Positions 21,103 to 64,000 of a DNA stretch of 64,000 nucleotides are shown here, one piece after another (position 1 is the stretch's first letter; each line of letters begins with the position of its first letter). Location: positions 1-64,000 of the forward strand of contig NW_026863975.1 in the NCBI RefSeq assembly GCF_026571515.1, in the 5' to 3' direction. The DNA is from Ruditapes philippinarum (taxonomy: Eukaryota). The notes beneath the pieces were generated by a model that saw only the letters and a list, made by a program, of their open reading frames with translations, had not been told where the DNA came from and did no database searches. Both the position numbers and the translations under genes were made by a program.

Positions 21103-21215
21103 TCATTGGAAAACAAAAAGAAACATAGCTAAGACTCCGAGGATAGCACCAACCAGTCCAGCTACCATAAACAGCCCACTGACCCAAGCGTCCTTTGCTT
21201 CGAAATTTGCGTATC
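21103..21215 (-). CDS. NLR terminal exon 6 encoding a transmembrane tail (GYANFEAKDAWVSGLFMVAGLVGAILGVLAMFLFVFQ*)
   Basis: Acceptor ttttgtataatttcag|, phase-1 match to the donor ACAG|GTAAGG at 21575/21574, and ~26 uncharged, mostly hydrophobic residues before TGA. Confidence 0.72.
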
Positions 21216-24200
21216 CTGAAATTATACAAAAATGTATTACTGTACTATATCAGCTCATGAAGATGATATATATTTCAGACTATCTAAAAATAATTTATAC
21301 ATTTACAGTACCATAACATTGACGCCAATGTGATGGATTAACAAGTTTAATTATATAAATTGTATTTTAAGATTGTGTGCTCATGCTCATTACATTTTTT
21401 TTGTTCCTATTATTTACACAACCATTTTTATCATTAAAATATTGATCATAAATTGAAAATATTTGTATTTATATTCAATATGTATTCAGACAAAAACGGC
21501 ACATATAGATTTACCTTAAATACCATTTCCTGAATACAAATTTGGTAGCTACCTAAAACTATCATCATCCTTACCTGTTTCGAATGAAAACTTTTTCTTG
21601 CTGTCGAACCTTACCCTATACTTGGTGGACTTTCTGATCTTGTTTGTTATCATATGGTATGTTAAGCAGCATGAAGGTATAATATCGCAACTTTCTATGA
21701 TAATAAGAACGGCTTTAGAAAGGTTATCGACGCTACGAATTAACTCTTCAAGTGCCGGAGTGGTTAATGTTACCTCGTAAAGATGTACACGTTCAATACT
21801 TCTCATTTCAGGAGCTAAGACGAATTTTCTACCACCAAAATCAGCATATTCAATTGCAAAACTTTTTATTTGCGTCAACTTTGTAAGGGATCCCGCCGCG
21901 TAGAGGGATACCTGTTCTTTTGAAAGGTACTTTAAGCGTAGCGTGTCAAGATTTGCTGCATTTGGCAGACTGCCTTCCAATTCCTTGTGAACATTGGTTG
22001 AAAGTCTTCCAGTATAACACATGTTTAAAACAGAAGGATTGACTCTTAGTGTTGAGATAGGTATGGTGCCAAGCCGTAACGTCTGCAGATTCTTATGTCT
22101 TGAAAGATCTAATACGCCACATTCTCCGCTGTGGTCCGAATCTTCACATTCAATATGACACAACCCAACCTCTGTCATTTCTGACTTTCCATTTATGTGA
22201 GCAAGTAAATCTTGAATGTCTGTATGAGATAAACGAATGCTATTTAGGCGTAATGACGTCAAAAGATCCATGCCAAATACTGTTCTTATAATTTCACGAG
22301 GAAGTTTTGTATACTTTGTGCGGTATTGTCCATCGATAAAGTTTGCAAAACATAAGTCGAGGCATTTTAATGATTTCTCAGAGTTTGTCAATAATTGTTC
22401 AAGATCATGTTTTGGTGGCGTAGCAATAACTTCTATCTTCTGAAGGCATTTCAAATTTGGAAGATCAATTTTTAAGAGTCTATCTGACACTTCTTTTGTT
22501 GACCTACTTTGCTCTATACTTAATGATTTGATATTATCTGTATTTTTCCGGATGATCTTTACAAGTGTTTTGAACCTTTTGTTAGTAATTGAATTATCTA
22601 ATACAATATCCTCTAGATATAAGTCAAAGTCTCGATGATTGTTTCTCAACATTTCTTGTAAGATATCAGTCTGCATAGACTGAAACGACTTTACAACTTC
22701 CCAACATTTTCGATACTCTGGTAATGACGTTCTTCCAGATAAGCGGCACCTGTAGCGACTTATTGTTTCGTCTGTTGACATTATAGACCTCTGTAAATCT
22801 GCAATATTCTCATAAGCCACAGGACTAAAGCCACCCAGGAATACAAACATATTTGACAGCTGCAAAATGGATTCCAATGTACTGTACTCCGTAAGAAGAC
22901 TCTTTTTTAAATCTAGATTGTATGGACTCGCCTGAATATACAGTGCAGCGAAATACTCTTGAATGGTTTTATGCTGAAACGAAAAGTTACTTTTCCTACC
23001 TGAAATCTTTGTATAGTCTTTATTCTGAGATAACAATCCTTTGTTAAGGAAAAGGCTTTGCTCATCGGTTGAGATAAATTTGTCCACAATATGGTCCTCA
23101 AATATAAGTGCTGATTCGTTTCTCCCACTGGTAAGTGTTTCAAATGCTAATTTCCCAAGCCTTAGAAGTTGCTGATAGTAATGCAAACACTCTTTATTTG
23201 CTGAAAAACATACAAGATGATTTACACTTTCATTTGAGGCAGTTTCTGTGACAGTCACGTCTGTAAAACTCTTACCTCGAGCAAGATTAAGTTCTATAGT
23301 GTTGCTATAGATCTGACATTGAGAATTTCCTATTGTATAGTCGTCGAACCATAGGCAAATCAATTGTAAAAATATGTAAGGTATGGACATTAAAGCATCA
23401 ATTTTTGTAGATGACACAGCGGTTCGAAAGTCTTCTACTTTTTTTGAAGTCCTATACGCTCTATTAAATAGCTTTACGGCCGAAGCTAATAACTGGTTTG
23501 ATTTTGTCTCGTCAAATTCAAGAAGCTCATATAGCATATCGATTTGACTGTTTTGAATTTTTGATGAATAAAGTTTCCATGGACGTGTTGTAGTGAGGAT
23601 TGTACAGTTTGGCCAATGTCGTCGATGGGGAATAACATCACCCTTGTGTTCGCAGTTTTCTGGATGCATCCATTCATCCAACCCATCAAGTATAATCAAC
23701 ACATTCTTTTCGAGCAATAATTTGTCCAAAAATCTTCTGCTGTAAATGTTAGGGAAAGGCATGTTTTTTTGCAACATGTGGTATATCATTTTATTGATAT
23801 GGCACTCATTTGTATCTGTTTCTTTTAAAGATATAAAAAACAATAAATCAAACATCTTCAAAGTTGTAAAATCTTCCGTTTGACTTGCTGACTTAATAAC
23901 CGGTAAATGTGCCTGGCACCATGTCAAGCAAACCTTTTTTACAAATGAGGTCTTTCCGATCCCCGCCTTTGCAATGACATAAATTTCCGTATACGGTTGT
24001 TTACCGGAAAGGAATAGATCTTTGTATGAACATATTTCATGTTTAGATGTAGAATTATTTGCATCTAGGAATGCATTTGTTATTTCTATAGATCTGATTG
24101 TTGGCTGCACGTAAACCTCTTCAAGCGGAACATCATTTTCTATTATCAACGGAGAGATAGGTAATGTTCCTTGGGAACGTCTGTAAACTTTTACCAAATC

Positions 24201-26994
24201 ACGGCGTAACCCTGAAATTATAGACACAATTTTATAAGTTGAAACAATTTCTAAACTGTAGTAACTGAAGCACGTTCATAAAAACAAAAGCACAAGAAAA
24301 TAAGATCATTCGTCAAAAAGATATTCTAAATTTACATTTAGTAAGAACATTTAGCTCTTAATCGGTATTGCTTTATTTATCTAGTGTTTCTAAGCTTGTT
24401 GTAAACAGCAATGTTTAAGACAGAACGTCGGGTTGTACTTTATAATACAAGATATAAACAATAATGGTTTTTTTTTCTAATTTGCAAGTACATTATATAT
24501 AATATGGTTATAATCTTTCAGAACAAAAGAAATATGCGTCTTCAGAAACAAATTCAAACATTTATTAACAACAGTTAACAGCACTTACTTTTACAAAGGC
24601 GTTTGTATTTCAAACAGGAAAGTATATCAAAACCATAGGCTTGCTGAGGAAAATCGTTTGCTGTAAATGCGAAACAAGAAGAATTGATGAATAGATTCGT
24701 TTTTCTTTATTTTATCATAAATTACTTATAATAGCAAAACAAATTTGGTTTGTAATCTAGCTTAGAAAACTTTCTCAATGACAACTGATCTGGAACATTA
24801 AGTTTAATGAATATTGTCTCACACCGTTGATTTATAAATCATATGGGATTAATTAAAAATAGTTCACTTGCACAAAATACATGAAATACTTGTGATTTTT
24901 ACAGGAAAGCTGGGCAGGTGGACCGGATGCCGAGATATGACTTAAATCGGTTTAACAACAAACAAATTTATTGGTAAGCATAATACACATTAGTCGTTTT
25001 AAGGACGTTATTAACTCATATACATAGGCATGTATAAACACGGTCAAACCAACATTGCAATGTATATCTCGACAGTTTGACAAAAATCAACATAGCTTAC
25101 CAATTCCCTTTTGGAGAATTTCATCGACTACTTCACTTTTAATTTCTTCCTTCATTTTTATTAGAGCCTGTAACTTTATTGTGACTATGTAATCTAGTTG
25201 TGCAAGTGGTAGAGTTTCTTTGTTGGCTACCTCCGATTTAATGTCGTTTATCAATTTACGCGGTATCTGCATCGCATCTTCTTTATTCTGCATTTCTTTT
25301 TCATTTCCAGTGGAAGAATCTATTTCTTCACTGGCGGTCTCTAACGCTTTATTTAGATCTACCACATGAACAGTTATTTCATTCTTCTTCAGCTGAAAAA
25401 TGAAAACAAAATCATTATATTGGCTCGAATTTTATGTAACACTTCAAAATACACGTATAGCTTCGTAAATTAAGCTTTAAATATGTTGACCTTTGTATAT
25501 GTAAAGTTTTTAACGTAAGATTTTAGAGATCCTGTATGTTGAAATTAAGGACTTAAGTGAAATTCTATATATGTATATTATTATGCTTCTTCAACAATTT
25601 TCAAACACCGAAGAATATGTAAAGTATGTACTGCAAATATTTGTCCATAATCATTAAAATATATAAATTTCTTATTGAAAAGATATCTTAGACTTTATAG
25701 AAAATAAATTTCAAATTACCTACCTTTATTAACATGTAATGTAAACTCGGTAATATCTTTACAAATAATGCTTTTTGGAACTTACAATATTGATAAATCT
25801 TCATTTGAGCAATAAATTTATGATAAAAAACATAACAATGAGTTACAGGATCTTTATAAAATCTACTAGACTTCTTTGATAACTGTAAAATATAACATAA
25901 GTTTGCAGTAGCTATTTATTGCCTTCATTGTCCAATGAAAATCGACCTTACAAACGTGCAGAATTATAATTTCAAATACACGCCATTTATGTTCAATGTT
26001 TATACAATGTTTAATTGAACGTCATGCAATTCACCAACCAAGTTAAGCTGTTTCACTGCTTCTTGTGCTGTTTTGTTATGAGCCAAACATTCAGCATCGG
26101 AAAGAAGACTTATCAAACTGTCAATATAAGTTTCTAGGTTTGTTCGTGAAACAATCAAATCTCCAGAATGTCTAATATCATTGCCCATATCACGCACCTA
26201 AAATAAAACAAATTATTATAGTAATGTTAATAAAAAATTCAACACATTGACACTTTGTAATTTCATTTATTGAAAGTTATGTTAAATGTTATGCTTTTGT
26301 CAAAAGCCGATTGTTATATTGAATGAGTTTTGGGTGCAATATACCTGTATTCACCAGATAATTCACTAATTGTTAAAGCCAATGCTTTCATATGAACGGT
26401 TAAGAAACTCTTTAAAAAGAAATACAATGTAAAGATTACCTTTGTGACCTTATTTACTTTCTCACTGAGCAGATTTGGCATTGTGCGTCCAAAACTTTTC
26501 TTACATATAAGTATGGAAAGAAACCCATTAAAATCCACATCTTTAAGGCTCTTGGCATTTTTGTAACGGTTTGTAGGAGGCACAAAACATTTCGCTATTT
26601 CGACTAAGTCGGTGCACCATCTTGTTGCGTCTGTACTTTTCCAATTAGGTGTCTGCCTGTGCTGTTTTCGTAATTCGTCTCGGATATGATGGCATATGTC
26701 CTTTGCACATTTTCTTCCAGGTACCTCTCCTTGAATCGTTGAACTATGGTAAACACATCTATTTTGACGTCCCTTGACACAAAAGTTGTTCGTTGGACAG
26801 CTCAAAATAAGTTCAGTCGTACATGAGTTGCAAATGGAGCTTTTATTTATCTTGTGTTTTGTGAGGACTGTTTGGATGAACTTATTTAAATCGTCTTCCA
26901 AAGTGGATTCTATTCCCTGTTTTGTCAAATTCATTGCCATATGACTTTTCAGCCAGTTCAAAAAACCGTCTTCTTTTAACAACGAATCCATCAT
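21103..26994 (-). CDS. NLR-like NACHT protein, 1269 aa: DUF4559/CXorf38-like N-terminus, helical linker, NACHT, LRR-like region, C-terminal TM; join(26994-26458, 26197-26039, 25392-25101, 24660-24589, 24211-21575, 21215-21103)
   Basis: All introns are GT-AG with compatible phases (0,0,1,1,1). The total is 3810 nt with no internal stop seen. The exon boundaries that fall inside the duplicated region are conserved in the inverted paralog at 60-64 kb. NACHT motifs are in exon 5. Confidence 0.82.
21575..24211 (-). CDS. NLR exon 5: NACHT (NBD-HD1-WHD-HD2) plus LRR-like region
   Basis: Lies within the 892-aa ORF. Pre-NACHT PLEEVYVQP, Walker A AKAGIGKTS, Walker B VLIILDGLDEW, sensor-1 ILTTTRP, WHD FSFQHKTIQEYFAA, and LxxLxL repeats (LKCLDL, LTSLRL, LQTLRL, LDTLRL). 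Confidence 0.93.
24589..24660 (-). CDS. NLR exon 4 (72 nt, phase 1-1)
   Basis: catttacag| ... |gtaagt, open frame ANDFPQQAYGFDILSCLKYKRLCK, conserved at 62189-62260. Confidence 0.65.
25101..25392 (-). CDS. NLR exon 3 (helical/coiled-coil-like linker)
   Basis: ttttcag|CTGAAG ... ATTG|gtaagc, paralog at 61418-61736. Confidence 0.82.
25527..25853. mobile_element. MITE-like insertion in NLR intron 2, absent from the paralogous intron
   Basis: Inverted termini agatcctgta (25527-25536) and tacaggatct (25844-25853). The paralogous intron 61112-61417 is ~340 bp shorter. A related inverted copy is at ~41511-41830. Confidence 0.65.
26039..26197 (-). CDS. NLR exon 2 (C-terminal part of the DUF4559-like domain, VRDMGNDIRHSGDL...)
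   Basis: ttttag|GTG ... TTG|gttggt, 159 nt, phase 0-0, paralog at 60953-61111. Confidence 0.85.
26458..26994 (-). CDS. NLR first coding exon: Cys/His-rich DUF4559/CXorf38-like domain
   Basis: NWLKSHMAMNLTKQG...CNSC...C...C...C..H...C..C...HRQTPNWKSTDATRWCTDLVEIAKCF...DVDFNGFLSILIC, ending at the donor AAA|gtaaat. Confidence 0.85.
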
Positions 26995-27646
26995 TTATGG
27001 AAGTAATATTCTTGTTTCAAGACTCACTTATCTTATAAGACCTAAATATTGTATGAAAAAGGTATGTTTATTAAATAATTGACAATTATTGATTTATAAA
27101 AATAACTTGAAAGTATCTAGTAGATAACAAAATGGTAGATCCCTCATTATCAAGTAAAATCAAAGTAAAATACAATAAAGAAAAATCAACCAAGCTTAAG
27201 CATCTTAAACAAATGTAGTCTTCATTACCCTGTGAGGTTTAATGTGAAATGAAATGATGGTTATTAAAATATATTACCCTGCTAGAAAAATCTTTCGTCT
27301 GTGACTGTGTCGTCATCACGTTTTTATAATTGTTTTATTTCTGAAAATTGAATCAAACATTTCAATGTGGAATTCAGTATAACGTTTAATGAAAAAGTAC
27401 AAAAATGTATATATAAAGAAATCGTGCAAAACAACCACATATATCGAATTACCTTTGTTATTTTTGTATGTTACAAATCTGTCCGCTCCATCATAGAACA
27501 ATATGTGATGCATGAGTTTCTGGTTAGTAGCTCAAATGTTTTCGACAGAACTAGATGTGAAATTCAAAACTGTGTTTAATATGTCGTTGTTTTTTATTGT
27601 TTTTATTGTAATTTTTTTGAATGATTCTGACGGCAAAAATGTTTAC

Positions 27647-29814: not shown

Positions 29815-30753
29815 AAGTTACAGTCTCACTTACAACCCGGCAGAGCCCCGGTAGACGTCCGGGGTGATCCGGGAACGACTGGAGTACATCCGTAACTCTG
29901 TCGGCAACGTCCGGGATGACCCGGGATGATCCGGGAACATCCGGGATTCGACCCCGGATGGAATAAAATATTTAATATAACCGGGGTGGTCCGGGATGAT
30001 CCGGGAAGGTATTATAGCTTTGCCGGCTTCATCCTTAGCTCTGCCGGGAACGACCGGGGTTATACCGGGGAAGCACCGTAGCTTTGCCGGCACAAACCGG
30101 GGATGATCCGGGGTATGATATAGCCGGTAGAGCTACGATAGAGCTACGGTAGAGCCCCGGTTTATGCAGGCAGAGCCCCGGTAACTACAGGCAGAGCCCC
30201 GGAGGATAAAGGTAGAGCTACGGCTGATCCCGGTAGAGCCCCGGCAAAGCCCGGATCATTTCAAAAAAATAACGACAATTTGCGATGATTGCACTTGTTT
30301 GTATTTAAACTATTCCCATTTCCCTTCTATCCAGTCTTGCATAAGGATTTTTCAGAAAATCATCATGAATTACTATTCTGGAACAATAAATATTATATTT
30401 AATAAAAAATATGTATCAATTTTATCATTTTCACTCGTTTTCAATCCACCGAGGTTCTACCGGGGCTCTGCCTGGATCGTCCTGGGCTCTGCCTGGATCG
30501 ACCGTGGCTCTGCCTGTGTCAACCGGGGCTCTTCCGGAGTCATCCGCGAACGACCGGGGAAGCACCGGCATGAACCGTAGCTTCACCTGGGCTCTGTCTT
30601 GATAATCCGGAGCGCATCCTGGGTGGTTATTTGGGAATTACCGTAGTGCTGCCGGGGTTAGTGTGACGGCAACAATAATTTCATCCCGGATCATCCCGAT
30701 AACTTACCGGGATAGTCCTGGGCTCTGCCGGGAGTAAGTAAGACCGCAGCTTT
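29815..30753. mobile_element. GC-rich MITE with imperfect TIRs and internal AGAGCCCCGG/GATCCGGG sub-repeats; TTAA at both ends (Harbinger- or Kolobok-like, unresolved)
   Basis: The left end aagttacagtctcacttacaacccggcagagccc matches the reverse complement of the right end, aaagctgcggtcttacttactcccggcagagccc. Internal motifs are mirrored around an AT-rich core (30260-30445). Confidence 0.8.
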
Positions 30754-31756: not shown

Positions 31757-33633
31757 CTTGTGTCGACTTCAATTCAATCGGTAAAACAATTTAATTACAT
31801 TACAAATACTGTGCATAATAGGGATCAAATGCATCGTAATTTAGCTACACAATAGACCGTATTAATCAAAAAATACATATTAAGCAATAAAAATGTCTGG
31901 CCAACCGACAAATTTCTAAATGAAAGGTACAATACAATGTAACCCAGTCCTGTGTATAAACACCGGTTAGGCTAAAAAGAGCTTGAAATATGTGTAAATG
32001 AGATATATTCTAGAGACTTGCGTTAGTCATGCTTGTTTTTAATTTTATTTTTAATATTAAAGAATTAGAGCAATTATGTTAACAATATGTTACTCGCAAT
32101 GCAAATGATTTGTCAGAAAACAACGATGTAAACACTTCACTTTTGTTGTACACAGATATTAAATACAAATGTACATAACTTAAACGTAAAAAAAAAGAAA
32201 TAAGAAACATGTATAAATATTTTGATATTTTATAAAAAAAATCTAAGAATAGAAAATTTGTATATTTCAGTTTTTTTCTGATTTAGTTAAAACATTCCGA
32301 TATTTTGACAAGACGAATTACTTGTCAGTACTTTAACTATTGCGTTCTGTTTTTACCTGATGGATTGTGTTTTATGCAATGCAAACAAAGCAGGTAAAGT
32401 GTAAATATCAATTTCCCTACATGTTTACCAGTCATATTATTTGGAAAAAATATCAAGATTATAAAAGGATATTAATACGAGAAACGATTTAAATAAGTTC
32501 TTTACCTGAAATTGACACCTTTTATTTGTGCATTTGCTTGAAACTAGACCTCGATCCATACGCACATCCCGTGTCCTTTATGAACTTAAAGAAAAAATAT
32601 AAATGTATTTTCTTTGACGTTGCCGCCATTGTTATAAATTAATTTTTCATTAATTAAGTGACTCAATTTGAATTAACATCCAAATTAATTAGTTTTGAAT
32701 AGAAGAATTAATTAAGAAAAGATACATTGTCCGATAATGAATTTAAAGATTATGTAATCCACGGTAACAATTGTCTGCCATTTGTTATGACTACCAAAAC
32801 GCAACTGATCAATGCAGAAAAAACTAGGAGGTATGCAACTGAAAGTACAGGAATAGAAATAAGGGAGATTATATGGGAGGATCGATAGGGTATTTCCAAT
32901 GCACAGTATGATTAATTTTGCAATATCGCATATAAATTCAACCAAGAAGTATTCTATAAACACGCAGTAAACCTTGGTTTAACCATTGATGGTTTACTTC
33001 TTCGAGTTAGGTTTGTGCAGAAATAATATGAACACTTAGCAATGTTACATAACACAAATACTTGGTGAAATCATATGTTTTCAGATTATTATGATGGTAT
33101 ACCAGCACTTTTTAATTGACGTAAAATTTAAGTTTTATTGTATGTTACCAGTAAAATAGTGCTTTAAATTACTAAAAGCGTATTTCAATAAGAACAATAT
33201 TGTTTAAAATACAATAGAGAAAAAAGAATCTTTAAAGAATGACCAAAACAGCTGTTATGCTTCGCAATAGACCTCTGACCTAATGAGGCGACATATTTGA
33301 ACTACTTTTAGTACATGATTCTACCATTTTGTTGGATTATGTTATCATATAAGGTGTAAAATTTAAAAAAAATAGTCATTATTTATTTTTTTCATCATTG
33401 TTACTCGGGTTGATTAAAAAAAGAATAATTGAAGAAGGTATCACAAAGATAAATACTCTAAATACTAATAGATACGTGATTTGTTACTTTCTCGCGAACG
33501 GACACTGCCTCTTTAACCGGGCGAGTTGCGTTTTTCGAGGCCTATTAACATCCGAGATATTTACGGAAATAGTCGATGTTTTACGATTGGCGCAAACGGT
33601 ATTTTAGATTTTACTTCAGACAAAGATATGTAA

Positions 33634-35157
33634 AAAAAAAAGCATTGATGCAAAGCATCAAAGGGCGTCCAAGCAAGAAATGCAGCAAGTGCAGATGAAC
33701 TAGTAGATATATGATGACAAGATATTCTTATAAACTTTTCAATGGTTCATTGGTTTTTACCAGAATTGTATATCACTTATGAATGAACGGACGAAAGACA
33801 TTGTTCATTACTTATAACTTTGATTGGCATGCTAGAAATTAGAATATTACTTGTTATTTCTTTATGATCGTGGTTATTAATAGCAACGGACATACATGTA
33901 TACAATCATTTATAATCCATATGTGTAACGCATGATCAGCACCACACTTGTGTAATTGTCCCTTATTAATTTATCGCTATGAGCGAAGACCATGTTGATC
34001 ATGTTGAGCATAATTGTTTATTATACAATAATTGTAATATTTATTTTAATAAAAAATACAGATTTTATGAATATTGTTTTCTTTTTTTTGTTTTATGCGC
34101 TATTTTAATACTGAGTTTTTACGTTTACTACTGTTTTAAGAATTCAATTGTCATATTGACCGACGATTATAATTAAGTCAAAACTTAACTGGAAAAAGTC
34201 AGTAAACTATGGTTAATCTTTCAATATATAATATTGTTTATTCTTAAACCATAAACATGTACATTTGTATTTTTCTTTATCATTTTTTAAATTATCAATC
34301 AATTGAATTATTCATAAAATCTGATTTGTAACTTTTTTGTACTTGATTTGTAATAATTCCTCGGCATCTTTACTAAACACGAATAACAAATGAAATAAAA
34401 TGTTTCAAAGTTGATAGTGTCATATTAATGCCATAAAAATGTACATTTTTCTCAATTATTGTACATATTTATTGTTTGATCTCATATAGATAAAATAAAA
34501 CATGCGATTTGTGTTGTTTTCGTTTTTTTTTTTTTTTTTTTTTTTTTTCGAATTGTATGTTTATGTATAATAATAATCAATAAATTTGAGAGTTGATCTG
34601 TGTTTATTAATTATTGTAACCAAACTAACATTCATTTTGGAAAAAAAGCTTATTTATCTGTAAAATATTTGTTTTGTTCTGTAACGATATCAAACATCTA
34701 CTCCAAAACCGGGAGAGACCGGACAATAAACGTGTGGTACTATTCGCCCCGGTCAAAATAGACCAGGAGAGACCGGGAATTACCGATAGGAGTACATCCG
34801 TCTATAAATAGATTTTCGGAATTTTTGTGTCATCAACTCATCATTCTATTTACAGCTTTCGGAATAACATACCATAATAACCCACTGTGTGCTAAAAAAT
34901 GATAAATAAAAATACCCCGAAGAGCGCGATTTATTGACGGAAAAGGTGATTTCAGTTGAAAATGTTTGCATTGCGAAATTCTCCAGTTCGCTATTCATTG
35001 TACATATCGCGACTAATTAATAATCAAGCACCCTCATACCGATCGGAATGATCGGCTTTTATTATGAACAACTATAAAAGGCTCGAGAAGTTGCTGTCGC
35101 CCTTTCACAAAATCTGATTTCATTACATAAAAGGCGCCGCGCTTCGGCGCGGACGCC
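33634..35157 (-). mobile_element. ~1.5-kb Helentron-type non-autonomous element (HINE) with an in-window empty site
   Basis: Copy B reads gatatgt-aa-caatcg with no insert. The insert ends carry inverted GGCGTCC/GGACGCC motifs, a GC hairpin (35133-35157), and a TTGATGC-AAA-GCATCAA hairpin next to an A-run. The target is TT, with no TSD. Confidence 0.7.
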
Positions 35158-35547
35158 AACAATCGAAACTAAAATGATCTTCATATCTTAAAGTGATTTA
35201 GTAGAAATCGCAATTTTCCAATTGATATTGATTAAACAGATATACTAGATTAAAGGGTATAAACTTATAAAATTAAATATTTTCAGTATATTAATAACAA
35301 GTAGAATTTTGTTGTTTCTATAATCTAGTGGTCGATCAATGAGTTTGTGCATACGTCAGCTGCACTTAAGAAGGCAGTATGCAAACGTATTCTTTTGCAG
35401 AAATTACACTACATATTGTAAATTTATAGCTTTGTACACTATATGTATTTAAAACTAAACTTTGAACCGTGATATGGCAGAAAATGATATCAAAATATGT
35501 TTATAATGATTGTCTGTGTAAATTTAGAAAATATGACAAAATACATG

Positions 35548-35765
35548 TAGTGGCCGAGTGGCTTAAGAGTCGGACTAGTAGTCTAATGATCGATAGATTA
35601 TGGGTTCAAACCCTGTCAGGGGCAAGTCGTTGTTTCCTTGAGCAAAAACCTTTTTTTACACTCATTGCTCAGTACTGGTTGGTTCCAGGAACGGATTCAA
35701 AAGTTTGCCTATAAGCTTATAGCTTCCTACACAATCAAACTAAAATAAATTCTAAATAAACTAAA
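35548..35765 (+). mobile_element. tRNA-derived CORE-type SINE
   Basis: A box tggccgagtgg, B box ggttcaaacc, core tccttgagcaa...cattgctcagtactggttgg, (A)TAAA-like tail, and tacatgt on both flanks. Confidence 0.78.
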
Positions 35766-38700
35766 GTACATGTTATCGAAAGTTTCAAAAGTGGTTATTT
35801 TGAATATGAAAAGATCGTCGGATTTTATATTTCACAATTTTAAAGTAGTTTCTACCAGATTGTTTATGTGTTAACTCATTACTGTGTTCGAGACCCGGTT
35901 AGATTGCATCATTATTCTACATTTTATAATTTAATAGCGAAAATGTCGGCATATAAAACATTTCAGAGACTTGCTTTAAACGTGTTTGTTTTGTTTTGGT
36001 CTTTGTTTGTTTTGTATTGTTTTGTTGTTGTTGTTTTTTCTTTGTTTTTTTTGTGGAGGGGGACGTCATTTTGTTGTTTTCTTTTCGGAATCGAAAGTAA
36101 TTAAGTACATACAATATGGAACAATCGAAGCGCCTCAACACCTCAACGATTATTCATAATAATCTAGGAGTTATAACTAATACGGATTAAAACTATTTCT
36201 ACCACTACTAAAGCATGGGATGGCGATATTTAAATTTGCTGATTGAATATGTACTTTTTTCAAAAAATAGAACAAATATTTTCCTTCTTGTCTTTTTCAT
36301 TTTTTAAGTTAAAATATTTCATTTATTAACAATTCTCTTTACACAAACAAAACCAAAACCATAGAAAACTTTGCATAGTAATTTATTTTACTCAGACACA
36401 AAAGAATGCAATTCAATATTACTTCAAAAAAGTGAGAAGTTATAATTGTAAATGGTAAATAAAAACAGGATGTAAAATGTCAAAAGCCAAATAAAAAAAT
36501 AAATCTGAACTAAGATGAAATGTTGCGTCTTTTAAGTGATTTTGAACTATCAAAAGGATCCAAAGGTTCCAAAAATTATTGTTATTCTTTTAAAAAAAAT
36601 ATTACTGTTATATCTGCTTTTAGATTATAAATTGTATTGTTTGCAATACAACAAAGTCGGTGTTATTAATCATGCTCCTATCAAGCAAAAGAAGTTAAAA
36701 TATATTATAAACTTTATAAAATTATAAAAAAAGAAACGTTTACGAAAACGATTAATTAAATAAAGTGCTTACCTGAAACTAACTTCTCATTGTTGCGTAT
36801 AGAAATACTATGTCCTTTTAGGTATGATAAAAAACAAAAACGGATTCCTTCTGCAAAGGCCTCCAATCTAACAACGATTGTATTAAGTTTAATAACGACC
36901 TTTATTACTCTGTAAAGTTTATGTTATCCAAGCTGCAAATGTCTGTCATTTGTCTAAACTGCCTTGTAAATGAAATGGATTATGTTTTATCGAAGTCGGT
37001 GTTTAATAATGCACAAATGCATTGTGCAACGGGGAATATCGAGTTACCAATAACGGTAGGTTTACAAAGGGTATTTCCACGGCATGACGATAAAAAACAA
37101 ACAGAATATAACCTTAACGTCCCATGCACATTTTACAAAAATAATGCTTAATCATGGACATGATGGAAGAGCCGTCGTTTTTAATCTGAAGTAATTTGAA
37201 AGTTTATCAAGTGAGTAACTATAAATCAAATTCTTGCATAAAAACGCGTGCACAGGTATGTATACATAAACGGAGAAGTGGATAAAATCTGTCTATAGCG
37301 TTTTTTGTAATATGCAAACACTTTTAGAGGCTATTTTGTTTCCAAAAAAACCAAACCTTTGGAAAATTTCCCTGCATAAATTTTGGTTTCTAAATTTAAA
37401 AAGATTTTTTAAAAATTATAAATTGTGATTCCGGGGGTTACATACTGCACTGGGATTAAAACAAATTTTTATTATTTTCGATTGAAAAATGAAAAAATTT
37501 TTATAAAAAGTATTTTAAATTTTAAATTTGCGGGCATGGTTTAAAAAGTAAACGATAAAAATTTCACAAAACGTTTTAATTTCTGTGCTCATGACGTTTA
37601 GAATGTAACTGCATTTAACTTGACACACTAAAGGGTTTTCAACACCCCCACTTTCCTTTTACTTTCTAACGCGATTTAAAATTTGGGAAAAGATTTTGGG
37701 AATTTCCCTTTATTTGGAAATTTTCACGGAAATAGACGAAAATTAATAGGCGGAGCCAATTTCACGAAAGCAGAATATAAAGAGAGGTAACTCTTGCGGG
37801 TACAAAAATATTTCAAATTATATAGAAACTGTTACATCACTCTTGACTTTGAACATCCCTCTGATTTTGTTTAAACGTATTCTAGTACAGGATATTCAAG
37901 TCATGCAAAATTGTTTAATATATAATGTAAAAAATGTAACAACGTATATACTGATAATGAGCATAATAATATGCAAAAAACTAAAGTTGGTGAAATAACA
38001 TAAGGAAATGTTTCCCATATATAATGACACTCACCACTATTTATTGATATCAATAATAGAGTTTTGCTTGAGCCACGGCAATACTCTTTGGCCATATCTT
38101 TTTTTTTTTACCTTCAGCAAATAGTACTAGAATGCGATACATGGAAGGCACTTTTGGCAACACCAATAAAGAGAACTGAACAAAAAGCTTGTGCCTTCTT
38201 TCTTTAAAGGACTATGTTGGGTTGTAGAAAAACTCATATATTTTGACCAAGTGTATAACCATGAAAACAATGCAGAGTTTACTATCGATAATTCCGTTGT
38301 ATAACCAAAACTTGTGAATTTGTCCCATATTAATGTTGAAATAAATATTCAGTGTATCCTTGCAACTCTGTTTACCTCCATTGGGAGGTATTTTGGGTCA
38401 TAGGATGTGATTTAGCCTTTTATTGTTAAATATATGCAAGCTGGCGTAGGTTAAGGTCTTTTTTATGCATTGTGCTGAATCAAATTAGCACCTCTAAAAT
38501 ATGTGTATACATGCTGTCATTAGCTGTCACCTAGATTTGCTGTCTAAATTTGTTGTCTATTATGATCAAAAACAGAGAACTACTTTTATGTACATGAAAT
38601 ACTACAGCAGAATATTTATTAAGGTTTTGAAAGTAATGGCTTTCTAAGGAGATAAAAATAAACAAGGTATATCATAAATTGATAATCAACATACATACAT

Positions 38701-40247
38701 TTGGACTCATTTTAAATTTTACTTATTGAAAACGAAATGGGAAAAATGGGGAAAATATATGGTAAAAATAAAAAGTTATGTACGAAAAGGGTACATACAA
38801 CTTTGGTTATAATTTTACTATTGTTAAAAGTTTTTTTTCTTGTCAAGTCATACGTTAGAATTAAGGTTACTAATATAATAGTACTACTAGGAAAGACAAC
38901 AGCCAGAATTTGGTCTGTATTAGTAATAAGTCGTATCAGAATGTTGAACTTGAAAAATTGAAAGTGGTAAGGTAGCAGCTTTAACTGTAAATGTTACTCA
39001 TTCTTATGCAAATTGGAATACCATCAGTGAAATTTATTTGTCGTTGAATATAGTCTTTTCAATAGTTTTCACTTCTTGAAAAATATTTAACCTCAGACAG
39101 TATGTAACCTGGTGATTTTCGGTTTTTTTTAAGTTTCTTTTTTCCAGGAAATGTGGTGTCTACAAACGTTTTAAAAACTTATATGCCTATATTCCTTTTA
39201 AAGTCCGCTGATGTTGGTTGTAGGCAATCATGCAACAGAATTATGTTAAGTAACTAAACACCTAAACGGTATGATAAACGGAAACTACGCCGTTTTCTTG
39301 TCGCCGACGGTAAATACCGAAAATGAGCGGAAAATACGTTTATTTACGATGATTTAGTGGGCGGGAAAATGGGCGGAGCTTATTTTATCTCCTATTGAAA
39401 AACGTGTAAAGCTGGATTATGCTGATCTGAATCATGATGGTTCGACAATGTAAAGCTAAGAATGTAACTTCTGTTTTGAGTATTCGAACACTTGGTACTG
39501 CTACTATCAGTTAATGTTTTGTCGTTAAACAAATAGTATTTTGTTGAAATGCATGTTTACAATGTTAAATCGGCAAACTCAATCCAAGTATGCAACATTG
39601 GAGTTTACATACAAAGAAATACAATTGTATTTTATCCATTAACAAACTGTTCAACTCAGATCAACAAGGCTGGATTTTTGGCAACGAATAGCCTCCATAT
39701 AACACAGGGCTCGGTGTAAAACTAGCTAACTGTCAAATGACCTGGCACGTAAAAAGCATGTAGTAACCGTTTTTTATAACGCAACGTGGAATGAAAGAAT
39801 CAGAAATATCCTTATAAGTAATAATAGCCCTCGGGCATTAGTATGTGTCGATGTAAATGCTTGTAAACATTGTACATTAACCCTGTAATAATAGCCCACG
39901 GGGATAAATATGTGTCCCATTAACCCCGTATTATAATGATACACTTGTTGAGCACTAAGGAACCTAAGAAGGATAACATGCTGAATAGTGCCTCACAAAT
40001 AAATTCTATTGGAAAAGATACTTTAAGAAGAAAAAATACTTTAAGAAGTTCAACTAAAATTATTATTCTATTTCAAGGTGGCAAAAAAACTAAAAGATAT
40101 ATGTGGCAACGGGGTCTTTCAAATAGAAGTATCACCATTCATACATATAAATACATTAAGAAAAATGTTCTTTTCAACAGCTCCATGTAAATGTATATTT
40201 AATAAAGTGTTAATTTCATGGCAGTTGAATGAAAGAATATAACAATT

Positions 40248-40482
40248 GAGCCGCGTCATGACAAAACCAACATAGTGCGTTTGCGACCAGCATGGATCCA
40301 GACAAGCCTGCGCATCCGCGCAGTCTGATCAGGATCCATGCTGTTCGCTTACAAACCCTATTACAAGTAGAGAATCTGATAGCGAACAGCATGGATCCTG
40401 ATCAGACTGCGAGGATGCGCAGGCTGGTCTGGACCCATGCTGGTCGCAAACCAATTATGTTGGTTTTGACATGACGCGGCTC
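40248..40482. mobile_element. 235-bp palindromic MITE, ~100-bp TIRs, GAG...CTC termini (Sola-like, tentative)
   Basis: gagccgcgtcatgacaaaaccaacata...catgctgttcgct and agcgaacagcatg...tatgttggttttgacatgacgcggctc, with flanks aatt/attt. Confidence 0.88.
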
Positions 40483-41510
40483 ATTTATTTTCATATTTTA
40501 TATTTGTAAAATTAACATGGTTAACATTTTATATGATTTTCTTAAATGCAACAAATTACACATGAATGAGTGCAGTTCTTTAAGAAACACTTTTGTCAGT
40601 TTAACTTACTATATTGTCATTCTAGGAAAAATGATCATTTATTGTAGTATGTGAACATTTGTGCATGTGAGTGTTTATTGTTAAAGCATTTCAAAATTAA
40701 ATTTTTTCAAGAACGGCACAATTTTATTGCTTGAATTTATTTTCATAAACAAATCGATTACTAGATTGATTAATGAATCGTGTTTAACTGATTTACCAGT
40801 GTAAACGTTTTTGATTCATCAGAAATAATTCAATCATATCGGAAAAAAAAATAATTTCACGCACATGTGTTCACATTTGATATTAAGTAAAAAAAATCCA
40901 CATCATTTGATTGAAATAGAAACAATATATGTATGTGCATGTAATAAGTAAAACTATTACTGTAATAAGTAAATTGTTTTTACCAAAAAGTCACAATCTA
41001 CACTTATACCAAACCATGAAAAGACTTCTTCCAAAATTATACCGTAAATTGTTTAGCTACTTTTAAATGAACATGTGCCGATTACTGTCATTTATTGCAA
41101 TCAGTTGTAATGTTCGACATAGTATCAACGAAAGTAAATAAAATACATATGTTACAAAGTGGCAATTTATATTCATAAGTATAATACAAGATTCTAGTTC
41201 GAAACAATACAAGGAAAAACATTAATTCGCTTCATACACTTGTCATTGTCTTCCATGAACAAGCTTAATAAAACAGAATTTCAAGTTTACCAACTCGTTT
41301 TTGTTGCCACTGTTCTGGAAGAACTCTCTTCTCCTTTTTCTAGACATTCTAAAATATTGGGAAAGTCAATCGTTTTAAACTTTCAATGTCCAATTGAGTG
41401 CCAAATAATCTGCATTTCATCGAATTAATTATTTGATTAAATTATATCAACCTTTTGAATGCGCATTGGCGTCTTGTTACACTTATCCAAGATTTTGTTA
41501 CTATTCATTT

Positions 41511-41830
41511 AAAGATCCTGTAACACATTTTTTATGGTTTAAAATCATAAATATTATGCTCAAATTCAGATTTATCAATATTGTAGGTTCCAAAAAGCAT
41601 TATTTATAAAGATATTACCGAATTTAACATTTCTTGTAAATAAAGGGCGGGTATAAAAAATTTATTGTCGATAAAGTTTAAGTCCATTTTTACAATAAGA
41701 AATTAATTCATATATATTTTAATGATTACACATAATATGCACAAATATTTGCAGAACATATTTTACATATTCTTCGACGTTTGAAAATTGTTTTATTGGC
41801 ATAATTATGTACATATATATATAAATATAT
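41511..41830. mobile_element. Second, inverted copy of the MITE-like repeat at 25527-25853
   Basis: aaagatcctgtaa, ttccaaaaagcattattt and caaatatttgcag..catattcttcg..tttgaaaattgtt match the reverse complement of 25570-25855. Confidence 0.6.
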
Positions 41831-44681
41831 ATATATAAAATGGTGGTATGTGTGTATATATTCTCTCATTTCTATCAATTTATCTGCACACTTGTATCTT
41901 AAGTGATCCCACGCAGGGGAAAGTATAACTGTATTGAATTTAATTATCTCCCTTTTATATATACTTTATCTGTCTAAATTCATTGTATCCTACGGATCTA
42001 CTTGATCTTACGTGATCCAGTTGACTTTCGGAAATAGATATATAGTTCTCTGGTCCCAATCAGTGAAGAAGACAATAAAATGTCATCGTTGATTTGTGAG
42101 ATATGTTAACAGAGAACAAACTCTATATATGAGAATGTTTGAGCTTGTTTCAATGTGTAGTGCAGTTTGTGACTGTATATAAAGCTGTTCTGAAACCATC
42201 ATTTTTGTGATGGTGGATGAGCAGTGGCTATGCTTTCATGACTGTTTCTGCCATGTATTGCATATTATGTCATAAGGATTCGAGTCGTTTACATAAGAAT
42301 AAAACACAGAAATCATGCAATATTAACCGAAAATACGCTATTCATACATGACGCGTTTTAATCATAAAAGTGTATAACTACAAGAATTTGCATTTTGGTG
42401 TCAGCCATTCATAAAAATTTCATTCTACAAGTTGTTATTAAAGGTATATAAATGGCAAAGTTAAGTACCACGGAAACAGACAGAGCTTCATCATGGAAAT
42501 ACTTGTATTCATGACATATAAATAAGAACATTTGATTAACTATTGTTTATCAAACAACAACAAAAGCGCAGTAGAAATGAAGATAGAAATGGTATGTACG
42601 GACGAACAAAGTGCTTGGAATATGTTTAAATAAAACCATATTTAGAGACTTTCGTTATCATGCATGTTTTATTTATGTAGAGTAATTCTGCTTACATTAT
42701 GCTTCTGACAGTCAGGAAATTATGACGTCCCCATAAAACTTCACAAATGATGTACAAAAAAAATCAAATTAAATAAACTTAAACATGAAATGAAAAAAAA
42801 AAACTTATCAAAGTATTTTTGAGATTTTATAAAAAATTACTTACGATAATATAAACTTTCTATGCTATTTTAGTTGATCTGACTTAGTTAAAACTTTCCG
42901 AATATTTAACAAGACAATTTTACTCGTCAATAATTGAACTATATAAATATATTTTAATCTTTTACCTGACTGATTGTGTTTCATGCAATGCAAACAAAGC
43001 AGGTAAAGTGTAAATATCAATTTCCCTACATGTTTACCAGTCATATTATTTGGAAAAAATATTCAAGATTATAAAAGGAGAACGAGAAACGATTTAAATA
43101 AGTTCTTTACCTGAAATTGACACCTTTTATTTGTGCATTTGCTTGAAACTAGACCTCGATCCATACGCACATCCCGTGTCCTTTATGAACTTAAAGAAAA
43201 AATATAAATGTATTTTCTTTGACGTTGCCGCCATTGTTATAAATTAATTTTTCATTAATTAAGTGACTCAATTTGAATTAACATCAAAATTAATTACTAT
43301 TGAAAAAGAATAATTAATTTAAGAAAATTATTTACATTGTCCGATAATGCATTAAAGATTATGTAATTTTGCACGGTAACAATTATCTTGCCATTTGTTA
43401 TGACTACCAAAAACGCAAACTGATCAATGCAGAAAAAACTAGGAGGTATGCAACTGAAAGTAAAGGGAATAGAAATTAAGGTTGATTATTTATGAGTAGG
43501 ATCGATAGGGTATTTTTAATGCACAGTATGATTAATTTTGCAATATTCGCATATAAATCCAACCAAGTAGTTTCTAAAACAAAACAAAAAAACACGCAAG
43601 TAATACTTGGTTTAACCATTGATGGTTTTTAACTTTTTTCGAGTTAAGGTTTGTTTGCAAGAAATAATGTGAACTCTTAGTAATTGTCATTAAGAACACA
43701 AATTAATGTGTTCCACTTTGCTCGGTTAAATCATATGTTTTCAGATTATTATGATGGTATACCAGCACTATTTAATTGACGTAAAATTTAAGTTTTATTG
43801 TATGTTACCAGTAAAATAGTGCTTTAAATAACTTAAAGCGTTGTAACAATAAGAACAATATTGTTTAAAATAGAGAAAAAATAATCTTTAAAGAATTACT
43901 AAAACAGCTGTTTTATAGACCTCTGACCTAATAAGGCGACATATTGGAACTACTTTAAGTACATGATTCTACCATTTTGTTAGATTATGTTATCATATGA
44001 GGTGTAAAAATTAAAAAAAAATAGTCATTATTTATTTTTTCATCATTGTTACTCGGGTTGATTAAAAAAGAATAATTGAAGAAGGTATCACAAAGATAAA
44101 TACTCTAAATACTAATAGATACGTGATTTGTTACTTTTCCTCCGCGAACGGACACTTTGCCTCTTCTTTAAACGGGGCGAGTTTGCGTTGGTGTTGTAAT
44201 TCGTCTTCGAGGCCTATTAACATCCGAGATATTTACGGAAATAGCCGATGTTTTACGATTGGCGCAAACGGTAGTTTAGATTTTACTTCAGACAAAGATA
44301 TGTAACAATCGAAACTAAAATGATCTTCATATCTTAAAGTGATTTAGTAGAAATCGCAATTTTACAATTGATATTGATTAAACAGATATACTAGATTAAA
44401 GGGTATAAACTTATAAAATAAAATATTTTCAGTATATTAATAACAAGTAGAATTTTGTTGTTTCTATAATCTGGTGGTCGACCAATGAGTTTGTGCATAC
44501 GTCAGCTGTGCTTAAGAGGGCAGTATGCAAACGTATTCTTTTGCAGAATATAAACACTACATATTGTAAATTTATAGCTTTGTTTAAAACTAAACTTTGA
44601 ACCGTGATATGGCAGAAAATGATATCAAAATATGTTTATCATGATTGTCTGTGTAAATTTAGAAAATATGACAAAAAACAT

Positions 44682-44897
44682 GTAGTGGCCGAGTGGTTTA
44701 CGCGTCGGACTAGTTATCTAAAGATCGCTAGCCGCATGGGTTCAAACCCTGTCAGGGGCAAGTCGTTGTTTCCTTAAGCAAAAAAATTTACACTCATTGC
44801 TTAGTACTGCTTGGTTCCAGGAACGGATTCAAAAGTGTGCCTATAAGCTTATAGCTTCCTACACAATCAAACTAAAATAAATTCTGTATAAACTAAA
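44682..44897 (+). mobile_element. tRNA-derived CORE-type SINE (duplicate of 35548-35765)
   Basis: Same A/B boxes, core and flanks. Confidence 0.78.
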
Positions 44898-60155: not shown

Positions 60156-63100
60156 ATGATGGATTCGTTGTTAAAGGAAGGCGGCTTTTGGAACTGGCTA
60201 AAAAGTCACCTGGCAATGGTTTTGACAAAACAAGGAATAGAGTCGACTTTGGAAGACGATTTAAATAACTTTATCCAAACAGTCCTTACAGAACACAAGA
60301 TAAATAAAAGTTCCATTTGCAGTTCATGTACGACTGAACTTATTTTGAGCTGTCCAACGAAAAACTTTTGTGTCAAGGGACGTCAAAATAGATGTGTTTC
60401 CCATTGTTCAACGATTCAAGGAGAGGTACCTGGAAGAAATTGTGCAAAGGACATATGCCATCATATCCGAGACAAAATACGAAAACAGCACAGGCAGATA
60501 CCTAATTGGAAAAGTACAGACGCAACAAGATGGTGTACCGACTTAGTCGAAATAGCGAAATGTTTTGTGCCTCCTACAGACCGTTACAGAAATGCCAAGA
60601 GCCTTAAAGATGTGGATTTTAATGGGTTTCTTTCCATACTTATATGTAAAAAAAGCTTTGGACGCACAATGCCAAATTTGCTCAGTGAAAAAGTAAATAA
60701 GGTCACAAAGGTAATTTTTACATTGTTTTTTTTCAAGAGTTTCTTAACCGTTCATATGAAAGCGATGGCTATAACATTTAGTGATTTATCTGGTGAATAC
60801 AGGTATATTGCACCCAAAACCCATTCAGTATATAACAATCGGTTTTTGACATAAAACATAACATTTAACATAACTTCCAATTAATGAAATTACAAAGTGT
60901 CAATGTGTTGAAATTTTATTAACATTACTATAATAATTGTGTTTTATTTTAGGTCCGTGATATGGGCAATGATATAAGACATTCTGGAGATTTGATTGTT
61001 TCACGAACAAATCTAGAAACTTATATTGACAGTTTGATAAGTCTTCTTTCCGATGCTGAATGTTTGGCTCATAACGAAGCAGCACAAGAAGCAGTGAAAC
61101 AGCTTTACTTGGTTGGTGAATTGCATGACGTTAAATTAAACATTGTATAAACATTGATCATATCTTAAATGGCGCGTATTTGAAATTCTGCACGTTTGTA
61201 ACGTCGATTTTCATTTGACAATGAGGGCAATAAACAGCTGCTGCAAATTCATATTTTATCTTTTTGTTATCAAAGAAGCCTAGTAGGTTTGGTTTTAAAA
61301 TCTGATAACAGTTTACACATACAAAGGCCAATCTATTAAAAGCTTAATCAACAGAGTTATGTATTGAAAGTTTACATAAAATAGGGCTTACATAATGATT
61401 CTATTTTCATTTTTCAGCTGAAGAAGAATGAAGTAACCGTCCCCGTTGAACATTTAAATGAAGCGTTAGAGAATGCCGGTGAAGAAATAGACCAACACTT
61501 AAATAAGAAAGACGCAGAATCGACCACTGGAAATGAAACAAAAAGGCAGAATAAAGAAGATGCGATGCAAATACCACGTAAGGTGATAAACGATATAAAA
61601 ACGGAGGTAGCCAACAAAGAAACTCTGCCACTTACACAATTAGATACCATAGTCACAATAAAGTTGCAAGCTCTTAAAGAAATGAAGGAAGAAATTAAAG
61701 GTGAAGTGGTCGATGAAATTCTCCGAAAGGGAAATGGTAAGCGATGTTGATTTTTGTAAAATTGTCGATATATAATGTTAGTTTGACCGTCTTAATACAT
61801 GCCTATGTATATGAATTATTAAGTTAAGTGTATTAATATGCTAACTAATAAATCCAGAGTTTTATGTTTGTTGTTAAACCAATTTAAGTCATATCTCGTC
61901 ATCTGGTCAGTCTGCCCGGCTTTTCTGTAAAATAACCAGTATTTGATGTATTTTGCGCATGTGAACGACCTATAGTTAATCCAATATGATTTATAGGTCA
62001 GCGGTGTGAGACAATATTAATTAGACTTAATGTCTCAGATCAGTTGTCGTAGAGAAAGTTTGTTTAGCTCGATGTTTGAGCATGCGAACCCTGGATTACA
62101 AATCCAATTTGTTTTCGTTACAAGTAATTTATGATAAAATAAAGAAGAACGAAACTATTTAACAGTTCTTCTTGTTTCGCATTTACAGCAAATGATTTTC
62201 CTCAGCATGCCTATCGTTTTGATATCCTTTCCTGTTTGAAATACAAACACCTTTGTAAAAGTAAGTGCTGTTAACTTTTGTTCATAAATTTTCAAAATGG
62301 TTTTAATGTGTTCCTTAAGACGCATATTTCTTTTGTTCTGAAGGATAATAACCATTATTTATTTGCAAATTCACAAAAACATAGTTTATAAACTTTATTA
62401 TAAAGTATAACCCGACGTCTTGTCTTCAAGATTGCTGTAAACAATAAGCTTAGAACCACTAGATAAATTTAATGTTTCTCTTTAACCACTAGATAAATTT
62501 TATGTTTCTCTTCTAAGTTAAAATAATACCGATTAAAGGCTAAATTGTTCTTACTATATGTAAATCTAAAATATCTATTTGACGAATGATCTAAGTTTAT
62601 TGTGCTTTTGTTTAAATAACCATGCTTAAGTTACTCTAGTTTAGAATTTGTTTCAGCGTATAAAAATATGTCCAAAATTTCAGGGTTACGCCATGATTTG
62701 GTAACTTTTTACAGACGTTCCCAAGGAACATTACCTATCTCTCCGTTGATAATAGAAAATGATGTTCCGCTTGAAGAGGTTTACGTGCAGCCAACAATCA
62801 GATCAATAGAAATAACAAATGCATTCCTAGATGCAAATAATGCTACATCTAAACATGAAACAACCGTATACAGAAGTTTATGTCATTGCAAAGGCGGGCG
62901 TCGGAAAGACCTCATTTGTAAAAAAGGTTTGCTTGACATGGTGCCAGGCACATTTGTCGGTTATTAAGTCAGCAATGTTTTATCAAACGGAAGATCTTAC
63001 AACTTTGAAGATGTTTGATTTATTGTTTTTTATATCTTTAAAAGAAACAGATACACATGAGTGCCATATAAATAAAATGATATACCACATGTTGCAAAAA

Positions 63101-64000
63101 AGCATGCCTGACCCTAACATTTACAGCAGAAGATTTTTGGACAAAATATTGCTCGAAAAGAATGTGTTAATTATACTTGATGGGTTGGATGAATGGATGC
63201 ACCCAGAAAACTGCGAACACATGGGTGATGTTATTCCCCATCGACGGCATTGGCCTAACTGCACAATTCTCACTTCAACACGTCCATGGAAACTTTATTC
63301 ATCAAAAATTCAAAACAGTCAAATCGATATGCTATCTGAGCTTCTTGAATTCGACGAGACAAAATCAAACCAGTTATTAGCGTCAGCACTGAAGTTATTT
63401 AATAGAGCGTATATGACTTCAAAAAAGGTAGAAGACTTTCGAACCGCTGTGTCATCTCTAAAAGTCGATGTTTTAAGGTCAATACCTTACATATTTTTAC
63501 AATTGATTTGCCTGTGGTTCGACGACTATACAATAGGAAATTCTCAATGTCAGATCTATAGCAACACTATAGAACTCAATCTTGTTCGAGGTAAGAGCTT
63601 TACAGACGTGACTGTCACAGAAACTGCCTCAAATGAAAGTGTTAATCATCCTGTATGCTTGTCAGCAAATAAAGAGTGTTTGCATCACTACCAGCAACTT
63701 TTAAGGCTTGGGAAATTAGCATTTGAAACACTTACCAGTGGGAGAAACGAATCAGCACTTATATTTGATGACCATATTGTAAACAAATTTATCTCAACCG
63801 ATGAGCAACGTTTTCTTTTAAACAAAGGATTGTTATCCCAGAATAAAGACTTTAGAAAGGTTTCAGAAAGAAAGAGTAACTTTTCGTTTCAGCATAAAAC
63901 CATTCAGGAATATTTCGCTGCACTGTATATTCAGTCGAGTCCACATAATCCTGATTTAAAAAAGCGTCTTCTTACGGAATACAGTACATTGGAATCCATT
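60156..64000 (+). pseudogene. Paralogous NLR copy; exons 60156-60692, 60953-61111, 61418-61736, 62189-62260, 62684->64000; 35-bp frameshift deletion at 62860/62861
   Basis: Same exons and splice sites as the minus-strand gene. tatgttcatacaaagatctattcctttccggtaaa is missing, giving a stop at 62965-62967. The original NACHT frame (AKAGVGKTS, ILDGLDEW, FQHKTIQEYFAA) is still readable downstream. Confidence 0.85.
62454..62512. repeat. 2 x 30-bp tandem duplication in the paralog's intron 4
   Basis: aaccactagataaattt(a/t)atgtttctctt occurs twice. Confidence 0.8.

Follow-up and report, generated by a model that had tools for sequence, protein, structure and literature searches.

A large group of clam NLR-type proteins with a DUF4559/CXorf38 HEPN-like head has undergone a clade-wide change of the HEPN motif: the canonical Arg at motif position 1 (R1) is lost, position 2 is relaxed, an Arg at position 5 (R5) and Asn156 (N156) are gained, and Asp154 (D154), Arg187 (R187) and His195 (H195) are kept. 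The reference member, termed gene A here, was found in a 64,000-nucleotide stretch of the Ruditapes philippinarum genome (the window; contig NW_026863975.1, positions 1 to 64,000), and carries the motif in the form RxxGxxxRH, in which motif positions 1 to 6 correspond to residues 190 to 195. The domain layout of gene A is already known from other animals; the RxxGxxxRH motif class is the new part.

The head might be a rewired, still active RNase that uses R194 and is switched on by NACHT oligomerisation, a reading of the sequence to which we give an even chance. The choice between an RNase and an inactive head had been posed in the original prediction on a single residue; the family data instead favour a rewired site over simple loss, because the motif change is clade-wide and comes with new conserved residues. 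Rather more tentatively, and at somewhat short of an even chance, venerid and myid clams could possess a large, old NLR sub-family with a re-built HEPN RNase site, in which the catalytic Arg would have moved from position 1 to position 5 and the Asn to a neighbouring helix.

Structure and Transcripts of Gene A

Gene A, on the minus strand, is intact: six coding exons form one open frame of 1,275 aa, and all coding introns are GT-AG (Table 1). The encoded order is a DUF4559/CXorf38 HEPN-like head, a helical linker, NACHT, an LRR-like region and a predicted membrane tail. The range 26039..26994 comprises coding exons 1 and 2 plus the intron between them (26439-26198; GT-AG, phase 0). The N-terminal pattern first noticed there (NWLK...Cys/His cluster...HRQTPNW..TD..W...EIAKCF...DFNGFL) is indeed encoded by exons 1 and 2, with VRDMGNDIRHS downstream in exon 2.

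Table 1. Features of gene A and its inverted paralog, in window coordinates.
Feature	Position	Strand	Content or basis
Gene A 5' untranslated exon	27278..27340	-	Joints 27039/27276 and 27340/27647, contig of one of four runs
Gene A coding exon 1 (aa 1-185)	26440..26994	-	Greater part of the DUF4559/CXorf38 HEPN-like domain, including the Cys/His insert; PF15112 match
Cys/His cluster C55, C58, C66, C72, C80, H83, C96, C101	26692..26832	-	Cys/His conservation
D154-F-N156	26527..26535	-	Conserved Asp and R5-group-specific Asn
Gene A coding exon 2 (aa 186-238)	26039..26197	-	Helix with the motif, then the final HEPN helices; AF2 model of relative P0182
Motif R187-D-M-G190-N-D-I-R194-H195	26168..26194	-	G in place of canonical R1; Arg at -3 and 5; His retained
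Gene A exon 3, helical linker	25101..25392	-	Sequence, contig joints, AF2 model
Gene A exon 4, 72 nt	24589..24660	-	GT-AG, in frame, joints in contigs
Gene A exon 5, NACHT, helical/winged-helix part and LRR-like region	21575..24211	-	Pfam, family profile
NACHT of gene A	about 23487-23972	-	Walker A AKAGIGKT, Walker B ILDGLDE
LRR-like region of gene A	about 21690-22620	-	Family profile
Gene A exon 6, hydrophobic C-terminal tail and stop	21103..21215	-	Hydropathy, spliced contigs
Gene B, inverted paralog	60156..64000	+	Exons 60156-60710, 60953-61111, 61418-61736, 62189-62260, 62684 onward

All five coding joints were found in assembled transcript-like contigs of public runs, the exon 1/exon 2 joint in contigs of two of four runs and the last joint (21214/21574) in contigs of three of four runs. 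A second 5' untranslated exon, ending at 27647, is present in a contig of one of four runs. As the contigs show many differences from the window sequence, they represent gene A or near copies and not the exact allele. In raw RNA reads from two 2026 runs, depth on exon 5 was very low and no joints were seen; most of the 540 and 579 reads matched a repeat in intron 2 (25566-25856, also present at 41510-41819), which draws most RNA reads mapped to the gene. Expression of gene A is therefore read from the spliced contigs, as none of the datasets found to contain the sequence is on record as RNA.

The DUF4559/CXorf38 Head and Its Fold

Pfam DUF4559 (PF15112) matches exon 1 over profile positions 3-148 (E 8.4e-11; 42.3 bits, cut-off 27), so that the proposed DUF4559/CXorf38 identity stands above the curated cut-off on exon 1 alone; exon 2 extends the same profile weakly (153-200; E 0.042). 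CXorf38 is classed as a Swt1-like HEPN family with an inserted Zn ribbon and is listed as active in the survey PMC3710099 (2013).

The Cys/His cluster likely forms two putative Zn sites. In an alignment of 103 proteins, C55, C58, C96 and C101 are invariant (103/103), and C66 and H83 are conserved at 98% and 97% in the R5 group, which supports conserved ligands in the predicted Zn-binding module. C66 and H83 are also kept in the canonical sister lineage L100, and other canonical members carry a Cys at 82 in their place. Change at the second likely Zn site seems to predate that of the motif.

An AF2 model was available for P0182, a relative that shares 220 of its first 240 residues with gene A (pLDDT 88), in which the motif helix spans 182-194. 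The best VIA-align match of this model is the Swt1 C-terminal domain (Z 5.7, weak; rmsd 3.6; 126 of 136 aligned), and non-HEPN helical bundles score equally well. HEPN-family chains occupy 6 of the 50 rows (Swt1 plus AbiF, AF0298, sacsin, Csm6 and a HEPN toxin), where they are mixed with unrelated bundles, and every Z-score is below 8. Foldseek of the head model against the PDB gave no match at E 0.001, and PDB sequence searches with the exon 1 and exon 2 profiles gave nothing or chance matches. The HEPN-like fold of the original prediction is consequently supported in part, by the weak match to Swt1 and not by Foldseek, and the weak fold match counts against an active RNase in this model-based comparison. 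The corresponding run with a canonical-class model is an uninformative control, as all 50 rows matched its coiled-coil tail. A homodimer prediction for P0182 aa 1-245, in which the alignment was not used, scored 0.27 against a mark of 0.32 and speaks neither for nor against a dimer. Language-model neighbours carry HEPN_DZIP3 or DUF4559 with scores of 0.94-0.96, on just 11-38% of their members.

The low Z-scores and the absence of a significant Foldseek match in the PDB would suit a Zn-stabilised adaptor without a nucleic-acid role, whose motif residues are kept only for folding. Such an adaptor is very improbable, given that the head belongs to DUF4559/CXorf38, a family classed as HEPN (PMC3710099), that Swt1 heads the structural matches with five further HEPN-family chains, and that the language-model neighbours point the same way.

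The same DUF4559 head occurs on other bodies in Mercenaria, namely with PF08477 (P0043, P0071), which we take to be a Roc GTPase, and with ankyrin repeats (P0052); in P0085 it is accompanied by a kinase profile match and the motif has decayed.

NACHT, LRR-Like Region and Membrane Tail

The predicted fusion to NACHT was confirmed by Pfam NACHT (PF05729) on exon 5 (E 6.3e-10; 39.6 bits, cut-off 26.7), with Walker A and Walker B both present; the first Gly of Walker A is replaced by Ala, likewise in some close relatives. No LRR was called by the Pfam search of exon 5 itself. An LRR-like C-terminal part is supported by a profile of 103 relatives, of which positions 326-1139 align with NLRP3 (E 1e-31) and which also matches the ribonuclease inhibitor LRR (E 2.6e-7). 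Gene A is likely an immune receptor, judging from its architecture and family size.

Exon 6, with a 19-residue hydropathy of 2.68, is predicted to encode a membrane anchor. The tail exon itself, part of the original prediction as a tail anchor, is real, being spliced in the contigs of three of four runs. The same tail is found in Mercenaria P0115, which is 48% identical to gene A over its full length; of the 108 long database relatives, P0115 alone has it. The membrane tail is a trait of a small sub-branch, and the idea that a tail anchor defines the class was rejected on this count. The last intron (window 21219-21603) is spanned by a contig of run X17, and read-through there would end the protein a few residues past exon 5; since this contig extends into the intron, a tail-less form of gene A may also exist.

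Census of the Motif Change

The Rx4-6H (R-phi-x3-H) motif is absent from gene A: G190 occupies the Arg position, the nearest upstream Arg lies 8 residues before the His, and another Arg adjoins the His. In the 1.41-Gb Ruditapes assembly, exon 1 matched all 150 scored places among 434 candidates, and the genome holds at least 150 matching loci. A motif sample of 140 overlapping loci yielded 104 distinct motif exons, 37 of them canonical (R1, N2, H6), proportions that are not genome-wide estimates because the 140 loci were picked from searches seeded with gene A. Arg at position 5 occurs in none of the 37 canonical exons and in 65 of the 67 non-R1 exons, where it is encoded by AGA (29), CGA (20), AGG (7), CGC (4), CGT (3) and CGG (2). 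In 52 of the non-R1 exons position 1 is G, the remainder having S, C, V, L, T, E, A or N there, and most R5 members carry R or K at position 2. The notion that Gly makes room for the new Arg is weakened, as position 1 can also be V, L, W or E.

In the 103-protein alignment, R194 is present in 61 of 62 non-R1 proteins, a conservation that ranks with that of the Cys ligands; mean pairwise identity within the R5 group (61 proteins) is 42%. Among 135 database representatives, 70 are R5, 17 are R1, five are neither (one a false match) and 43 lack the exon; the remaining 15 among the best 150 database relatives are R1. Twenty R5 proteins that were looked up come from Mercenaria (7), Mya (6), Dreissena (5), Ruditapes (1) and an unnamed source (1), and a further search gave 34 proteins from the same four genera, with R5 and H6 in all 27 new ones. 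The R5 sub-family is thus large and present in four clam genera, in searches not designed to show absence elsewhere. Ruditapes, Mercenaria, Mya and Dreissena span two clam orders. Alignment of bivalve homologs at the R/G position, proposed at the outset as a check, indicates clade-wide loss of R1 and not a local lesion; a local Arg-to-Gly mutation, or gene A as a pseudogene, is out, because the change is shared by the clade and gene A has an uninterrupted frame and spliced contigs.

As human CXorf38 has RNEIMH, the ancestral state is probably the canonical one. Trees need one change between the R1 and R5 classes. The class-separating branch has a support of 94 with the motif exon (104 rows, quick tree) and an SH-aLRT of 30 without it (71 hand-picked rows, quick tree). 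Because the switch looks like one evolutionary event, the mutual exclusion of R1 and R5 counts once. In the tree of exon 1, which took in L100 and L111, a small canonical-motif lineage (L100, L111, L117) clusters with the R5 class (support 100); it is the best outgroup for reconstructing the switch.

Co-Conserved Residues and the Predicted Site

Both a catalytic-type His (H195) and an upstream acidic residue (D154) are present in gene A. By Pfam profile positions they are likely the equivalents of H167 and D134, the pair proposed for human CXorf38 with its RNEIMH motif (preprint 10.64898/2026.05.28.728550). In the 103-protein alignment, D154 is 98% conserved in both classes, H195 is 95% conserved in the R5 group across four genera, and N191 is 93% conserved in the R1 group. 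N156 reaches 95% in R5-class proteins and is variable in the R1 group; in the genome sample it occurs in 59 of 61 scored non-R1 loci versus none of the 27 R1 loci that gave a score (4 of 92 loci went unscored), so that loss of R1 and strict N2 coincides with gain of R5 and N156. Residues 187, 190, 191 and 194 lie on one predicted helix in the P0182 model, and 190 and 194, one turn from each other, are separated by 40 degrees on an ideal helical wheel.

If the RNase is rewired through R194, the LRR-like part would sense a ligand and NACHT would oligomerise in response, by analogy with NLR biology, gathering the HEPN heads into a composite site. In that site, acid-base catalysis would fall to His195 together with Asp154. 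Phosphate or the transition state would be bound by Arg194, which lies one turn along the helix from the Arg that was lost, and Asn156 would stand in for the former Asn at position 2. Activation would lead to RNA cleavage, either antiviral or causing cell shutdown as with RNase L, and in the small sub-branch the tail would hold the receptor on the membrane. Consistent with such a site, positions 1, 2, 5 and 6 of Las1 are reported to face the catalytic centre (10.1101/760058), and other basic residues may substitute for a lost HEPN Arg according to PMC3710099. Against it, Las1 R1K is non-viable (10.1101/760058), R1 and the position-2 residue are required in the HEPN RNases tested in the literature covered, and the RNase activity of CXorf38 is given as a prediction in its sources (PMC3710099; 10.64898/2026.05.28.728550).

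An active head might alternatively work through the upstream Arg187 with R-x7-H spacing, leaving Arg194 a structural role such as a salt bridge to Asp154. The bacterial Zn-finger HEPN RNase RAZR requires R146 and H154, with the same spacing as R187 and H195 (PMC13017515), a comparison that concerns the Arg-His spacing and not the intervening sequence. The rise of R187 from 73% in R1-class to 93% in R5-class proteins and the loss of R194 together with D154 in P0092 and P0095 would fit this route; yet R187 also occurs in most canonical members (33 of 37 motif exons), several R5 members have K or L there, and R194 is retained more strictly, which makes the Arg187 route unlikely.

Gene A keeps D154, N156, R194 and H195. 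In the non-R1 class, loss at D154/N156 accompanies loss at R194/H195 both in the genome (3/5 versus 2/59, p 0.002) and in the database (6/7 versus 1/67, p 3e-7, false match dropped), p values that are overstated because the test is post hoc and the rows are related. His is lost in 4 of 67 non-R1 versus 0 of 37 R1 exons (p 0.29), a hint of relaxed constraint in the non-R1 class.

A conserved binding site would yield the same conservation pattern as an RNase site, and a non-catalytic binding site is the main rival of the rewired RNase. D154, N156, R187, R194 and H195 would then form an RNA-/nucleotide-binding or dimerisation surface of a pseudo-nuclease head, and the receptor would signal as a scaffold, or would pair with canonical R1-class paralogs and regulate them; these are plentiful in the same genome (37 of the 104 sampled motif exons). 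The two residues lost here, R1 and strict N2, are important for catalysis in the other HEPN RNases described in the sources covered; the motif helix of the R5 class is more basic (R or K at positions -3, 2 and 5), which suits binding, and a shared binding site would also produce the co-decay. Retention of His195 and Asp154, the proposed catalytic pair of CXorf38, across four genera argues against a pseudo-nuclease, as does PMC3710099, where HEPN domains that are probably inactive are described as devoid of conserved charged or polar residues. Overall, a pseudo-nuclease head is a serious possibility, if a doubtful one.

Relation to Known Systems

CXorf38-HEPN fusions to NACHT have been in print since 2013, in cephalochordates and cnidarians (PMC3710099), and DUF4559 is counted in 45 of 99 NACHT genes of Corbicula fluminea (PMC8298618). 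With these reports in print, the suggestion of an uncharacterised mollusc immune receptor class is not supported as far as the architecture goes. No description of the RxxGxxxRH class was found in searches of open-access full text, and the main text of the Mercenaria genome paper (PMC8905726) contains no occurrence of NACHT, NLR, DUF or CXorf38.

Gene A resembles the CXorf38/DUF4559 family in its profile match, Zn-ribbon-type insert, conserved His with upstream Asp and NACHT fusion, and differs from human CXorf38 in having the RxxGxxxRH of the clam sub-family and a C-terminal membrane tail. The Corbicula fluminea 'NLRP' genes share the DUF4559-NACHT pair, likewise expanded in a clam; the text of PMC8298618 gives their domain count without a HEPN interpretation or motif analysis. 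DZIP3/hRUL138-type HEPN-NACHT-LRR proteins, expanded in pearl oyster and anthozoans (PMC9646362, PMC8260672), also combine a HEPN head with an NLR-type body, lineage-specific expansion and a proposed RNase output, but their HEPN family is another one (PF18738), and of 202 pearl oyster proteins 194 keep Rx4-6H. By these papers, NLRs with a HEPN head are common among corals and bivalves, and their text reports no assay of one.

RAZR has a Zn-binding part and HEPN and is activated by oligomerisation, as is predicted for gene A, and in both the Arg and His lie eight residues apart; RAZR differs in belonging to the DUF4145 family, having no NTPase and being templated on phage rings (PMC13017515). 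PF13643 (DUF4145) gave no match to exons 1-2 at E 1 and none in the genome. In the text of PMC13581612, HEPN appears solely in a Streptomyces protein that shares its sensor with Avs7, and this source thus gives no tested STAND-HEPN precedent. Vertebrate NLRs such as NLRP3 and NLRC4 have a NACHT and LRR body like the one predicted for gene A, as reflected in the family-profile match to NLRP3. Their heads are death-fold or BIR adaptors, unlike the predicted nuclease of gene A.

If the re-built site is real, some animal NLRs would themselves cleave RNA once activated, through a motif (RxxGxxxRH plus DxN) that is scored dead by current rules; the Rx4-6H rule would then misclassify a whole family, and other 'inactive' HEPN domains would merit re-examination. 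If the class does not cut RNA, clams would have expanded a pseudo-nuclease receptor class beside a canonical one, which raises the question of its ligand. The two clean classes and the naturally decayed members provide ready controls for examining NLRs as direct RNases.

Gene B and the Surrounding DNA

The head of gene B is identical to that of gene A at 219 of 238 positions, and GNDIRH was confirmed in both window paralogs, as first described. A 35-bp deletion near 62857, absent from the earlier description of this plus-strand paralog, shifts the frame upstream of Walker A; the product of 462 aa is identical to Ruditapes philippinarum record P0220. Two further close copies carry small indels that look like sequencing errors.

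The window is AT-rich DNA, amid which positions 29830-30750 are GC-rich and dense in CCGG words, probably a repeat element. Between genes A and B lies a 6.1-kb direct duplication (35158-41229 and 44304-50350; 94.7% identity), preceded by an older one of 1.7 kb (31976-33636 and 42608-44308; 83%). At 53707-56189, a pair of 666-bp inverted repeats with 92% identity encloses about 1.2 kb and may represent a non-autonomous DNA transposon. Satellite DNA in 145-bp units (12.8 copies) occupies 3228-5068, and a composite 21/64/95-bp repeat lies at 1291-1878.
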